NCBI GenBank assembly: GCA_965645245.1
Contig: OZ287073.1
Location: 1 to 64,000, forward strand
DNA: 64,000 nucleotides
Reading direction: 5' to 3'
Origin: Massalongia carnosa
Lineage: Eukaryota
Shown here in pieces: positions 16,643 through 50,011 of the stretch. The position numbers and the translations under genes were made by a program. Every line of letters begins with the position of its first letter. Position 1 is the first letter of the stretch. Below the pieces are notes generated by a model. That model saw only the letters and a program-made list of their open reading frames with translations, was not told the origin of the DNA and did not search any database.

Positions 16643-16961
16643 AAAGTAATTCGGCTAGGGCGAAAGGTAATGACGGGACCGAGTGGAGGCAGGCCGTGGA
16701 TAGCCAACGAAGGCCGAAGGCCGAAGGCCGAAGAAGGATGATGTCCAAATAGTTGGACAAGGAGGGGAAAGAAAGGGCATAAATAGATGGCCTTTTGGCA
16801 CTCTTCTCCTCATCATCACCATTGATTCGGAGTTCAGCACCAAAAGGTCTTTTGAAAGTCTTTCCCGAATTAAACACATCTGTCAATCACACACCCTCAG
16901 CCCCATCATTCTAAATCACCTCCATTTCTCATCCTATATTACCTCCCACATTGAGCCCATC

Positions 16962-18085
16962 ATGCCTTCCCATCGCCCTCAAAGAATCACCAAGCCTTCC
17001 GCCCGCTCCGGAAACACCTCCGGGCCTGGTCAACGTCCCACTCGTTCTACCCGACCCCCTAGGGGAGGGGCCATAGTTCCAGAAACACAGCATCCTCCGA
17101 ACACTCAAGGCTCGGAAGGAACACTTCGGGGCGATGTGATAGACGTCCACCGAACACCGGAACCAACCCTGGACCTGCTGTTGGACCTCAGGGCTCAGCA
17201 GGAGGCCACGGCGACAGCCCTCAGGCAGGAGGAGACCCGTCACCTTCAAAAGCAAATCGCCGACAACTTGGCGGCCATTCAGCGCATAAGGGAAGGAAAC
17301 ACAGTCCCCGAGGGTAGGCAGGAGGCACACACTCCCCACCCGAACCAGCTACTGCCCGCTGAAACCGAAGGTACGGATCCATGTCTCCTTCCTCTAATTA
17401 TCGAGTATCCCGCCATAAACAGCAATTATTTCCGACAAATTCTGAACAACAAATTCGATCCCATAAATATTTCCAAGCTCTGCACCGATGTAGTCTTAAT
17501 CAAACCAACTGTCAAACGAGTGAACCTGGCCAAAGGATACGAGTTAATACAAGAAGAAGACGATGCGTCACCAGGAGACATCAAGGAACTACCTCACCTG
17601 ATTCGCTGCCTCGGGGTGTATTGGCAGGTCTTGCTTCATTTGGCACCATCCGGAATAAAAGACAGTCTTTGTAGGGCCTTTCAAATCTATCAGACCGCTT
17701 GTTGTTACATTACACAATCTACACTTGGGAGTCAGTACGAGTATTTCATATAATCTTCCACAGGGGTCGGGTGTACCAGGGGGTGAACGACCCGGCCGGA
17801 TGGAGGAGAATCGACACCACCGTCGAAAACATGTACCTTACTCGACGGACACCTAACTTGTCCATGACGGGAGGTACCACCAAGCAGCACCCGGGATCAA
17901 TTCCGGTAGGCGGCTCCACTGAACCAAAGCCTATGTCCTGCAATCGATACAACGCAGGGCGGGAATGCAAGGAATGCAGGTGTCCTCACGTCTGCAGTCT
18001 CTGTTTCGGCCATCACACGAAAAACAACTGCCCCAAGGCAAATATTAGCAACCCAAATTTCATGTCAACAGGTAGACGAGATTGA
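16962..18085 (+). pseudogene. gag: Element 1 gag-like protein (C-terminal Cys/His zinc finger), frameshift near 17695
   Basis: ORFs 16962-17753 and 17699-18085; YTWESVR.FH; CNRYN...C..C...HVCSLC...H....C. Confidence 0.85.
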
Positions 18086-19699
18086 CTAGCCGGCCCATTT
18101 GATCATATCGCCGAAGGGTTCCCCTATCCGCTGATAGATAAATCAGCAATCGTACCCTCAGGGCCTCTAAGAAAAGAAGGCTGGGAACTTCACCTCATGG
18201 GTCATCCGGAAAAAGTTTACAAACAGACCATTCACGATATAATCGTGTACGGGGCCAAAATTGGTTACACCGGCCCAGATCAGTTCATTCTAAGCAGCGA
18301 CCTGGCCTCGGCCAACGAGGCCCCAGAAATTCTAACCATGGACGTAGAGGACCAAAGGGCCAAAAACCGATTGATCGAGGTGCCCACCCTACCAGCCAAA
18401 TATATATGCTCCCCCTTAGGCTTAGTCCCCAAAGCAAACGGAGGATGGCGCCGTATTCATCACCTCTCCCACCCCGAGGGTAATTCGGTGAACGACTTCA
18501 TTCCCGAGGAATGGGGCGCTCTGGAATATATCACTTTCGACGAAGCCCTCGCCGGCGTCAGAAGAATAGGCAAGGACTGCGTACTGATCAAACGAGATTT
18601 AGCCGATGCCTTTCGCCACGTTCCAGTGGCGCAAAGCGATTGGTGGTTGCTGGGTTTTTGTTGGAACGGGGTTTACTGGATAGAACGCTTTCTTCCATTC
18701 GGCCTCAGGACGTCTCCCTTCTTGTTTGACTTATTCGCGAAAGGTCTGAACTGGATGATGATTAATAAAACAAATGGCGAAGTTATTCACTACTTGGACG
18801 ATTTTCTCGGAATCGTTCGCGCTATTCCCGATGCGGCATCCTTCGATCGGAACTTTGCCGAAATTTGTTCAGACCTCGGCCTAAAAATCAACGAAAAGAA
18901 AAATAAATAAGGCACGGTAGTCGAATTCCTGGGCATAGAGCTGGACACACACCTGATGCAGGCACGAGTACCGGCCGAAAAGCTTCAGAAAGCTAAGGAT
19001 CTCGTCCAATCAACATTGAATAAATCCACGATAGCCAGAAACGAGCTAGACACTTTGCTGAGATTTCTGTGCTTTGCAGCCAAAGTGGTGGTACCGGGAA
19101 GAACCTTTCTCCGACGCCTTTTCAACAGCAAAATCGGGCCCGCGCGCCTATTTATTCATATCAATTCTCACATAAAAGCTGATCTTTTATGGTGGCATCA
19201 TTTCCTTCCATTATGGAACGGCATACACATTATTAGCCCTTCGAGACCCCTGCTCCGTCTCTGGACGGATGCCAGTGGGGACTTCGGAATCGGGGCATAC
19301 ATACTTCAAGGTGGTCAGACCACACACACATTGCCCGCTGAACAAGTGGTTTCTGAACGTTATACCACCAGGCTCAGAGCCAAACATATCAATGAGAAGG
19401 AGATGACAGCGATTTTGCACGCCATATGGCGGTGGCTCCCCATGTGCAAGGGAGCTCATCTTCTTCTTTATTGCGACAGCTTTGCTGTAATGTCCGGGGT
19501 CAAAAAGACCTCCATTCGAGGCGGGGCCATGCATCCCCTCCGGAATATCGCCATGATGGCGGCAATATATGACATTGAGATTGAACCACACTGGCTGTCT
19601 ACCAAAGAAAATTTCTTAGCAGATTGGTTGTCCCGAGGACTATTTGGAAAAATCGCTGACAATTACCCCAACCTGCAGGGCATTTCATCGAACAAATAA
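18086..19699 (+). pseudogene. pol: Element 1 reverse transcriptase / RNase H, in-frame TAA at 18908
   Basis: SPLGLVPK..GGWRRIHHLS, LPFGLRTSP, HYLDDF, WTDASG, N..AD.LSR. Confidence 0.92.
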
Positions 19700-47809: not shown

Positions 47810-48823
47810 CTATTTCTTCGTTGGGCATGTCTTCTGGCCATGCCCAGCCGCGCCGCACGATTTGCATTTGTGCTGTCGGTAGCACGACGGCCAGGTGCAG
47901 GTGCCGCTGTTGTACTTGTCGCAGATTTCCCCCGCTGCCTTCTCGGCCCTATCGGCCCTGTCTCCTCTCGGGGTCGGTCGTCGGGACGGCGGGGATCGTG
48001 AGCGGCGACGGCGTAGGACTGTGAGGGGGGTGCAGAATCGAGCTTGGAATTCGTCGGGCATTTTCCATTGGGATGCGTCGGATGGCTGAGACGCGATGAT
48101 GTGAGTGTGGGTTTCGATGGCGAAGGGGAGGACTGCTTCCTGCCACTCGTACACCTTGGCCAGCGTGAGGATTTTTCCGTGGAATGCCGACATGGTGGCG
48201 TGAAGCTGTTGACTCGATTTCCCGAAAAGACTGACCATGATCGAGGTGTAGTTGATGAAGCTCTCGGTCCAGACGTCATGAACTGTCTTTCCGAAATCTT
48301 TGTAGGTCCCGGATGCCTTTCTCAACCTCAAGGCGCCGTCTTCGATGCCGATGCGGTCTTGATCCTTGTATGACTCGTATTGCATGCCGTGCATGTGTCG
48401 GAGGCGGGAGAGGTTGATGGCTTTGAATTTATTTGAAAAGATCTTGATGATCTCGTCCTGTGGTAGGCCCGCGAAACGGGGTGCTATACTTCTTACTTCG
48501 AGAGGGATCTCACCTAGGTCCTCGTCGTCATCGCCGACGACACGACTCGGCTTGCCAGCAGGAATGACGGCCGCTATTCGGGCGTCAGATTCTCGGCGCA
48601 TGCAGTCGATTTCTAGCTGCATTTTTTCCACCTCCTTCTCGGCGACCAATGCCTTGGACTCGGCAATTCTAGCCTCAGCCTCGGCCGCCTTCGCTTCTGC
48701 CTCGGCTTTCTTCTTTTGTAGGGCGAAGATTTGATTGGATTGGGCCTGCGTCAATCCGACAATCTCCTGGGAGTCGGGGACTATGTCGTCCATCGGGGTG
48801 CTTTGGGAACGGGTGTTCGTCAT
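47810..48823 (-). CDS. gag: Element 4 gag-like protein
   Basis: MTNTRSQ start, coiled coil, CDKYN..C..C..HKCKSC..H..C. Confidence 0.88.
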   Translation of the reverse strand: MTNTRSQSTPMDDIVPDSQEIVGLTQAQSNQIFALQKKKAEAEAKAAEAEARIAESKALVAEKEVEKMQLEIDCMRRESDARIAAVIPAGKPSRVVGDDDEDLGEIPLEVRSIAPRFAGLPQDEIIKIFSNKFKAINLSRLRHMHGMQYESYKDQDRIGIEDGALRLRKASGTYKDFGKTVHDVWTESFINYTSIMVSLFGKSSQQLHATMSAFHGKILTLAKVYEWQEAVLPFAIETHTHIIASQPSDASQWKMPDEFQARFCTPLTVLRRRRSRSPPSRRPTPRGDRADRAEKAAGEICDKYNSGTCTWPSCYRQHKCKSCGAAGHGQKTCPTKK

Positions 48824-50011
48824 TGGAAAAAAGCACCGACAGCGAGGTAGGGGCACCGAGGACAACGTGAGGTCGACGACGAGTCAGTGAGATGGGAAAA
48901 GCAGCAAGCACTGACAGCGAGGTAGGGGCACCGAGACAACGTGGGGTCGACGACGAGTCAGTGAGATGGATGAGGCCGAGTGAGAAGAAGTGGATGAGGA
49001 AAGAATTTTCAGAGGGTGATTCTTAATTTACTTTGACTCAGGGGCCTCACGTGACATAGAACCATCTCATCTTCCTTTCCCTCTTCCTTGCATTCGCAAC
49101 CCCTTGTACAGCTAAAAGAGTTTTTGAATTTTTTGTACTTTCAGCGCTTAGTGCAGCAATTCTACCCTCAGCAGACTTAGATACCCATCCCATGGGACAC
49201 CCCCCCGTTGTAATTTAGCACTCCCGCATAAGGGCCTTCGGCCCTTGGATCGGTGTACAATCAATCAATCATATTTCTCAGTAATAACACGCATTGTATT
49301 GCTTCGTATTAACTTAGTAAATATGACGAGTCAATATCTGTTAACGTCTCTTTAACATATTTTTTTCTCATGTTATTTATTAGAATTTAAACTGTTGTAA
49401 CAAACCGGATTCTTATGCACAAGAAATAATTAAGACGCGAAATAAAAAGAACTACTAGCTATGCGTAAAGATATACACGCTCGACTGTTTAATTCTGGCG
49501 AGATATGATACTTCTGTAAGTGACTATTCGTGTTCTATCTAATAACGCTTTCTGAGTTTTACTCTGTCAGGGTCCTAGCCTGACATAGAGATAGAAGGTT
49601 GACCTTAGAGGTGTTCGAGGTAACCGGTTAGGCTTAGCGCCAGCCGAGATAGAAAGAGGGATCACGGGATCGCGCGAGGCTAGCGCGACACTCGACGCAG
49701 ATATTTCTAGCGAGTCGCGCACAATAATTCTTTTCTTTCTTTGTAGATAAATTTTAGTTTAATAGCGGTTGAAAAGAATCGACGACAGCTACCTTACACA
49801 ATTTATCTACCTACCTATCAGTATTCTTTCTTCCAGAACTTCCAGTAGGGACGAGGTCCCGTTCCAGCAACTTCCTTCCAGTTAGGGTGAAGACCCGTTC
49901 CAGTAACCTTCCAGACTGATCGTTTGTGCGAATCCAAACCGATCCAAATTCCAGAACTTCCAGAATTTTCAGAGCCAGGGAATCAAGCTTTCCCACTTCC
50001 AGTATCCAGTC

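Follow-up and report, generated by a model that had tools for sequence, protein, structure and literature searches.

The first 64,000 nucleotides of contig OZ287073.1 of Massalongia carnosa (positions 1-64,000, hereafter the window; element coordinates are window positions) raise the question of whether a lineage of retrotransposons that use a tyrosine recombinase (YR) has dispensed with the long repeats regarded as essential for replication. The window holds four elements, here called E1 to E4, that encode gag, reverse transcriptase (RT) with RNase H (RH), and YR. A first-pass annotation described them as lacking long inverted terminal repeats (ITRs) with an internal complementary region (ICR) as well as split direct repeats, and proposed that their lineage makes its circular intermediate by another route. 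We find that this description of the sequence was right, but that the central inference drawn from it is contradicted. E1-E4 are an unusual state of a known element and not a new kind: they are probably fungal Ngaro-type YR retrotransposons of the DIRS order, present as single units made up of A, the open reading frames (ORFs) and B (A-ORFs-B), with the corresponding A2-link-B2 module lying unlinked elsewhere.

Ngaro elements were reportedly first described by Goodwin and Poulter in 2004. In the available parts of the literature, they are defined by gag, RT/RH and YR, by the absence of a methyltransferase, and by split direct repeats arranged as A1-[ORFs]-B1A2B2 (PMC4157794, PMC8547959, PMC13465315). 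Three kinds of search agreed that such repeats, and long ITRs with an ICR, are missing in cis from E1-E4. A seed-and-extend repeat search found nothing above 20-27 nt between the ends of any element. Smith-Waterman alignment of the 5' 500 nt, taken together with 300 nt of flank, to the rest of each element, in direct and inverted orientation and against 20 shuffles, gave scores inside the shuffle range in seven of eight cases, the eighth (E4, inverted) being a 19-nt match with a score of 28 against a shuffle maximum of 26. Self-comparison by BLAST at word size 11 showed no repeat pair that spans the RT, and no ITR/ICR or A-B-A-B layout. Split direct repeats within one copy were thus found in none of the four elements, and a DIRS-1-like long ITR with an ICR was likewise absent, three of the four inverted comparisons falling within the shuffle range and the fourth reaching 19 nt.

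The genes themselves are those of a Ngaro. Pfam detected RVT_1 and/or RT_RNaseH in all four elements, and the order gag, RT/RH, YR on one strand follows from Pfam and the ORF map, gag being recognised by a Cys/His-rich tail. Matches to Phage_integrase were weak and below threshold (E2 and E4). The YR ORFs of E1, E2 and E4 retain the R..K..HxxR..W..Y residues, and R175, K216, H288, R291, W314 and Y322 are invariant in all 15 aligned YR ORFs (these three and 12 relatives). No methyltransferase family of Pfam was found in any scanned ORF of E1-E4, and in E2 the pol ORF overlaps the YR ORF, which leaves no room for one. The presence of RT and RH in all four elements also separates them from Cryptons, which are YR-only and have no RT.

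Two of the four insertions can be mapped to the base. E4 lies in a copy of a long interspersed nuclear element (LINE) that has an unoccupied paralog in the window: positions 10674-11870 match its left flank (43545-44740) at 98.1%, and positions 11868-12069 match its right flank (49070-49271) at 94.6%. Because the empty site is colinear with these flanks, the insert is 44741-49069, exactly as first annotated; TCT stands on both sides of E4 but only once in the empty site. For E2, contigs of the public runs X1, X3 and X4 join position 28866 straight to 33277, skipping 4410 nt, at depths close to those of single-copy flanks (1409 vs 1700-2100 in X1; 17.5 vs 13-18 in X3; 2654 vs 2700-3100 in X4). 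This joint defines E2 as 28867-33276 and its insertion as polymorphic, so that the element is one base shorter at each end than annotated (28866-33277). Words of E2 occur at roughly 10-12 times single-copy depth. The 3' boundary of E3 is marked by a joint at 36883 and a step in depth in public runs, and its 5' boundary by its terminal inverted repeat (TIR) alone; support for the boundaries of E1 is internal only, from its TIR and the homology of its ends to those of E2.

The first-pass annotation had also attributed short recombinase-type ends to these elements, which holds for E1-E3 but not for E4. Perfect 8-bp inverted repeats close E1 (GTAATTCG/CGAATTAC), E2 (CTAGTTCG/CGAACTAG) and E3 (CTAGTGAA/TTCACTAG), and the chance of such a repeat at the proven ends of E2 is about 1.5e-5 (4^-8); the ends of E4 have no TIR. 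A B|A joint, if formed, would set the 3' end CGAACTAG of E2 against its 5' end CTAGTTCGG, and in E4 would read GGGTCAT from the 3' end, AGA, and TGAGATGG from the 5' end. In E1-E3 the same joint would be a perfect 16-bp palindrome, which would have the shape of a YR core site.

None of the four elements is intact. E2, the best preserved, carries a 14-nt tandem duplication in gag that shifts the frame; an intron was considered for this change of frame and ruled out, the duplication being a defect of the copy. E4 has a frameshift within RT (ORF map and frames of the high-scoring segment pairs), E1 several in-frame stops, and E3 frameshifts and duplications. E3 also contains an internal tandem duplication of 83 nt and, close to the 5' end, three tandem repeats of 20 nt (38437-38606 and 41665-41731).

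Evidence on the missing repeats comes from short modules that lie apart from the full-length copies. The stretch at 23701-24228 (the mini) had been taken for a miniature derivative of these elements. Its first 176 nt (A) equal the 5' end of E4 at 99.4% and its last 297-298 nt (B) the 3' end at ~98%, and between them lies a C-rich link of 54 nt that starts CCCCACCC and, with the last C's of A, reads CCCCACCCTCGGCCACCC. Neither E4 nor the remainder of the window contains a match to this link that exceeds shuffles (score 20-22; shuffle means 20-24). An internal-deletion derivative of E4 is therefore ruled out, and the mini has instead the A-link-B make-up of canonical relatives. E4 and the mini are two independent insertions with identical ends at different sites, both flanked by TCT (AGA in the orientation of the element), a trinucleotide that is single in the empty site; this suggests a 3-nt crossover core. 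No such shared flanking letters accompany the E2 insertion. E4 carries two copies of a 75-nt tandem repeat in its 5' region (48831-48969) and the mini carries one (23801-23864), with copy-number variants in the public runs.

The E2 family has its own module. Contigs of X1 and X3, and also of X5, join 29014 to 32921 with 39 letters between, and the reverse complement of this 39-nt link starts CCCACCCACCCAC. Depth at the module was 25000 in X1 (E2 body, 21000-25000) and 221 in X3 (165-250); contig depth is not copy number, and we read these values only as showing that the module is multi-copy. A CCCACCC stretch downstream of E2, at 28603 on the minus strand, was considered and rejected because its distance is wrong; the empty-site contig places it in the flank.

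Relatives of the window elements show where such modules belong. Of 330 candidate stretches in metagenome contigs, 260 were confirmed, and we studied the best 80 loci. Nine have the classic structure A1-ORFs-B1|A2-link-B2 (L059, L074, L080, L015, L025, L036, L018, L037 and L012), and seven more show A1..A2 or a cyclic terminal overlap (L002, L024, L034, L038, L021, L027 and L026). At the nine canonical loci A2 directly follows B1, and a unique link of ~47-220 nt, absent next to A1 or B1, separates A2 from B2; in all nine the A2/link boundary carries a C-rich run (CCCNCCC type), which in L015 forms the last 7 nt of A. The modules of the E2 and E4 families have the make-up of the A2-link-B2 part of these relatives, including the C-rich start of the link. 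Links of L059, L074, L080 and L018 share a second conserved block, ..GCGCCC[A/T]CATTGCCA.., just before B2, and those of L025, L012 and L015 share ..CAGCATTGCACTGGATA..; that such a block is a priming or packaging signal is a guess.

Other relatives show the parts in different arrangements. L024 (positions 1-4785) has an AB module upstream of the full unit, A-link-B|A-ORFs-B, the reverse of the textbook order. L021 and L027 have exact terminal overlaps of 139 and 120 nt and unit lengths of 4184 and 4161 nt, self-closing assembly graphs of the kind expected for tandem, circular or A1/A2-collapsed elements. Within the L059 family (identity about 96-99%), L059 itself is canonical, and L043, L058 and L070 stop exactly at the end of B1 in three different flanks. 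A flanking duplication of 3-4 nt was considered as a general rule and rejected, with TCT/TCT at E4 and the mini, tta/tta at L043, and none at E2, L058 or L070.

In a FastTree phylogeny of 81 RT/RH sequences (rooted at the midpoint, from a pseudo-alignment in E2 coordinates), the clade of E1-E3 has L001/L003/L004 as its sister and L002 as the next branch, and E4 groups with L021 and L024, adjoining a group that holds L037; relatives on the E4 branch are canonical, cyclic or permuted. L002, the nearest relative with enough sequence, has genuine flank before A1 and B1 running directly into A2, and the end of its B1 (...GACACGA...CGCTAG) is similar to that of E2. L001 is cut by a contig end and L003 is degenerate (truncated gag, internal inverted repeats), so neither is informative on ends. 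E1-E4 nest among 16 metagenome relatives with A1..B1A2(B2) or A1..A2, in a tree that holds no named Ngaro reference. The tree has no repeat-less clade, and this nesting among repeat-bearing relatives means that the window elements are not a separate one.

How a Ngaro could come to lie in two separate pieces may be seen from its circular intermediate. In the accepted model, the internal B1|A2 joint allows the element to restore its ends although the transcript is sub-terminal, and to close a circle that is then inserted by the YR. The available text of PMC7192593 summarises the DIRS-1 model, and that of PMC8547959 and PMC4157794 gives the Ngaro structure. A complete Ngaro circle, A1-ORFs-B1|A2-link-B2|, would contain two B|A joints in direct orientation, with A and B both duplicated, and we infer that recombination between the joints or the repeats would split it into a full-length unit and an AB unit. 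The catalyst could be the YR of the element acting at the joints, or host homologous recombination through A or B; the event might occur in the circle or after integration; and each unit might then occupy its own site, or one might be lost. Integration via either joint would give either order of units, and the order in L024 is as expected if either joint of a two-joint circle can be used. Resolution of this kind would account for the single units (E1-E4, L043, L058 and L070), the solo AB, and the canonical copies. Lacking a B|A joint in cis, a single unit could not rebuild its ends by the accepted model and is thus most likely a dead-end product, a status that the defects in all four window copies fit without proving it.

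The alternative from which this study started is that the lineage truly lacks long repeats and closes its circle by some other route, from a full-length transcript, with the help of short palindromic ends and a hairpin in the 3' RNA. It draws on the absence of cis repeats from all four window copies, on the proven ends of E2 and E4, and on the 8-bp TIRs of E1-E3, which would yield a 16-bp palindrome at the circle joint. The last 148 nt of E2 and E1 do form a long hairpin (z = -4.76 and -4.2, respectively) that is more stable than all 200 shuffles; the 3' RNA structure had been called conserved, but it is found in only two of the four elements and is not significant in E3 (z = 0.1) or E4 (z = -0.3). 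Further, both the E4 and the E2 family possess A-link-B modules built like those of canonical Ngaros, A1..B1A2(B2) occurs in relatives on both branches, and with all four copies defective nothing shows that a repeat-less form replicates. A lineage without repeats that needs its own route to the circle is contradicted by these modules and by the canonical relatives, and we consider it very unlikely. A motif, GCCCAAACA, lies ~45 nt from the 3' end in E1-E3; a shared 3' fold of these three sequences (RNAalifold, -9.94 kcal/mol) had an unfavourable covariation term of +2.99 and provides no evidence. Less likely again, to the point of being scarcely credible, is an assembly artefact in which the A2-link-B2 tails were collapsed or dropped from the genome assembly of the window. 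Collapse is a classic fault of short-read assembly where repeats of 150-350 nt lie within 5 kb, but E4 is bracketed exactly by the paralogous empty site in the window and E2, just as exactly, by independent contigs from three runs, and the solo AB is intact in the same assembly.

Several observations do weigh against the view that E1-E4 are resolved Ngaros and that their single units are dead ends. Modules of E1 and E3 are absent from the window, and none of E3 is among the joints listed for the public runs; for the E2 and E4 families, a B1|A2 joint was found neither in the window nor among the 15 joints listed, which allows no conclusion either way; a canonical tandem copy in the M. carnosa genome is not demonstrated for these two families; and the tree, as said, is without a named Ngaro. 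Every full-length copy in the window is a single unit, and among 19 well-flanked relatives (>=2300 nt of sequence upstream of RT, >=900 nt downstream of YR) A1..A2 occurs in two and A2 is absent from 17, a share higher than expected of a rare by-product. Finally, L043, L058 and L070 resemble one another more (97.9-98.8% over 5047 nt) than they resemble canonical L059 (95.9-96.6%), and single units could themselves multiply.

These points would be met if the product of integration were a unit circle, full-length or AB, closed at the B|A joint and inserted by the YR, with A1-ORFs-B1A2B2 a tandem of both. The tandem alone would then yield a joint-containing RNA, and single units might also move as DNA, by Crypton-like YR excision and re-insertion. 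The identical ends and flanking AGA of E4 and the solo AB at two sites, the polymorphism of E2 against a clean empty site, and the occurrence of both unit orders among relatives agree with this, as do the closeness of single units in the L059 family and the 17 to 2 excess of single units over canonical copies. That count is biased, however: the internal repeats of canonical copies make short-read assemblies break, and most canonical loci are short contigs with A or B at their edges. A pre-insertion allele explains a clean empty site no less well than excision does, and no circle or tandem joint was observed for the E1-E4 families. We hold unit circles to be an unlikely product, though a less remote one than a repeat-less lineage. 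The same low credence attaches to the claim that these fungal Ngaros move as a monomer circle whose ends meet in a short B|A joint (palindromic in E1-E3), with full and AB units inserting independently and the textbook element a tandem needed only as a master; if this were true, split direct repeats would be a by-product of unit tandems and not an obligatory cis structure. Resolution of a two-joint Ngaro circle remains the reading that we prefer.

The coding regions also bear on how these elements would be expressed. The E2 pol ORF had 1847 homologues at E<=0.001 among 8000 candidates scored. In all four elements, gag and pol share one frame with a single stop between them, TGA CTA in E1-E3 and TAG GGG in E4; stop-CUA contexts favour readthrough. 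The first-pass annotation had proposed readthrough and splicing as the way to three proteins from one transcript, and the in-frame stop between gag and pol is indeed conserved throughout. An in-frame ORF of at least 150 codons lies directly upstream of pol in 23 of 69 assessable rows (66 metagenome relatives and E1-E3), in most of these with a Cys/His-rich gag tail. Of 55 rows, 49 have the YR ORF in the -1 frame, for the most part with an overlap with pol; in E2 its first Met is codon 104, well within the conserved region, and similarity begins upstream of it. A programmed -1 frameshift as a general signal is unsupported, a canonical slippery heptamer (X_XXY_YYZ) in the pol frame being present in two of 20 pol-YR overlaps. 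A pyrimidine-rich ...CAG at the start of the YR ORF was considered as a splice acceptor and set aside, as it coincides with the conserved pol codons P-Q-L and sequence alone does not permit that reading; splicing is a possible means of YR expression.

Comparison with described systems places E1-E4 closest to Ngaro, with which they share gene order and content, the lack of a methyltransferase, YR active-site residues, an RT that nests among A1..B1A2B2 elements and, in two of the four families, an A-link-B module. Unlike described Ngaros, the module is never attached to a full-length copy in the window; E1-E3 have 8-bp inverted ends that would make a palindromic B|A joint, which was not seen in the more distant relatives inspected; and the probable host is an ascomycete, while the available parts of PMC3783388 and PMC13465315 report fungal Ngaros mainly from Basidiomycota. 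The mini resembles the isolated AB repeats of Ngaros in Cafeteria burkhardae (Hackl et al. 2021, PMC8547959) in being an A-plus-B unit away from a full-length copy. The accessible sections of that paper interpret such repeats as recombination remnants like solo long terminal repeats (LTRs), and in those sections neither a reciprocal A-ORFs-B unit nor a C-rich link is mentioned. DIRS-1-like elements, which in the accessible text have ITRs, an ICR and a methyltransferase (PMC7192593), are similar in using a YR instead of an integrase and in having no fixed-length target-site duplication, but E1-E4 have none of those three features. PAT-like elements, described in the part of PMC4157794 at hand as combining split direct repeats with a methyltransferase, share the split-direct-repeat logic; E1-E4 differ in lacking the methyltransferase, and the internal repeats of their relatives lie downstream of YR, as in Ngaro. 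Cryptons are YR-only DNA transposons according to the portions available of PMC3212892 and PMC13465315; they have similarly short or absent terminal repeats, and their insertion is thought to proceed via a circle and a short shared core (AGA for E4), but they have no RT, RH or gag.

The surroundings of the four elements are those of a chromosome end (Table 1). (CCCTAA)n telomere repeats extend to ~170 and degenerate telomere-like repeats on to 360; beyond them lies a subtelomeric mosaic of mobile elements, with the four YR elements within a transposon cluster. The LTRs of the Ty3/gypsy element are 234 bp long and 100% identical (49565-49798 vs 55719-55952), and its insertion is therefore probably very young; inverted runs of ~0.8-1 kb with roughly 70% identity to it occur within 61006-63980. 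Word depth is very high at 24267-25600, 34272-35605 and 42276-43599 (up to ~50x single-copy flanks in X1), which marks these stretches as other high-copy repeats, unannotated; 34738-34859 is repeated at 35486-35607, and 25479-25569 is repeated inverted at 42441-42530. The Helicase_C ORF and the OrsD-like ORF, one of whose homologues has a DEAD helicase domain, may represent a subtelomeric helicase gene family. Because the named homologues of the OrsD-like ORF are all from Pezizomycotina, the host of E1-E4 probably belongs to this ascomycete group. A run labelled 'lichen metagenome' contains 0.30 of the sampled words of the E2 region, which is no evidence of habitat.

Table 1. Features of the window, with the parts of one metagenome relative (L024, in its own coordinates)
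Feature	Position	Strand	Basis or remark
E1, decayed Ngaro-type single unit (gag, RT/RH, YR)	16646..20902	+	Pfam RVT_1 and RT_RNaseH, ORF map, 8-bp TIR
E2, single unit, best preserved, 4410 nt	28867..33276	-	Empty-site joint, Pfam; CTAG at both ends, 8-bp TIR
E2 A segment, 5' 356 nt, upstream of gag ATG	32921..33276	-	Joined to B via 39-nt link in other copies
E2 gag tandem duplication (TACAGAAGGTATGG x2)	32379..32406	-	Shifts frame
E2 in-frame TGA between gag and pol, candidate readthrough site	31684..31686	-	Context TGA CTA
E2 pol ORF, RT and RH, 538 codons, without own start codon	30067..31683	-	Pfam RVT_1 3.5e-14, RT_RNaseH 1.4e-7
E2 YR ORF, -1 frame	29051..30106	-	40-nt overlap with pol
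E2 B segment, 3' 148 nt, ~100-nt hairpin then GCCCAAACA	28867..29014	-	Joint and fold
E3, decayed single unit (frameshifts, internal duplications)	36880..41814	-	TIR
E4, single unit, 4329 nt, in LINE copy	44741..49069	-	In-window empty site, Pfam; TCT each side, without TIR
TCT, target and crossover trinucleotide for E4, in unoccupied paralogous LINE copy	11868..11870	+	
Solo A-link-B module of E4 family (mini)	23701..24228	+	A 23701-23876, link 23877-23930, B 23931-24228
LINE (non-LTR; endonuclease, RT, RH ORFs)	6092-12069		
Second LINE copy, 3' part, 98% identical	43545-44740 / 49070-49271		Site of E4 insertion
Ty3/gypsy LTR retrotransposon (gag with zinc knuckle, protease, RT, RH, integrase)	49565-55952		
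Tc1/mariner-type transposase ORF	59874-60734		DDE_3, HTH_Tnp_Tc3_2
Helicase-like ORF near telomere	4719-5768		Helicase_C
OrsD-like ORF	13893-14849		Named homologues all Pezizomycotina (Leotiomycetes, Dothideomycetes, Verticillium)
L024 parts (positions in L024)	A 7-243, link 244-316, B 317-529, A 530-766, ORFs, B from 4663		

The ends of two single-unit Ngaro insertions are thus known to the base, in one case from an empty site within the window and in the other from a polymorphic empty allele; together with a solo AB that shares its ends with E4, they provide clean material on the position at which the recombinase cuts. In the parts of the Ngaro literature available, we found no mention of base-exact single-unit insertions, of a unique C-rich link, of palindromic ends as in the E1-E3 clade, of a probable ascomycete host, or of how common single units are; ascomycetes, to which the host probably belongs, are said to be almost devoid of Ngaros. 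Among the fungal relatives, single units occur commonly, and the conserved C-rich link of the AB module is absent from the full-length unit, which carries a warning for annotation: detection based on repeats will miss most fungal Ngaro copies. The apparent lineage that dispenses with replication-essential repeats is not one, as its module is present but unlinked.

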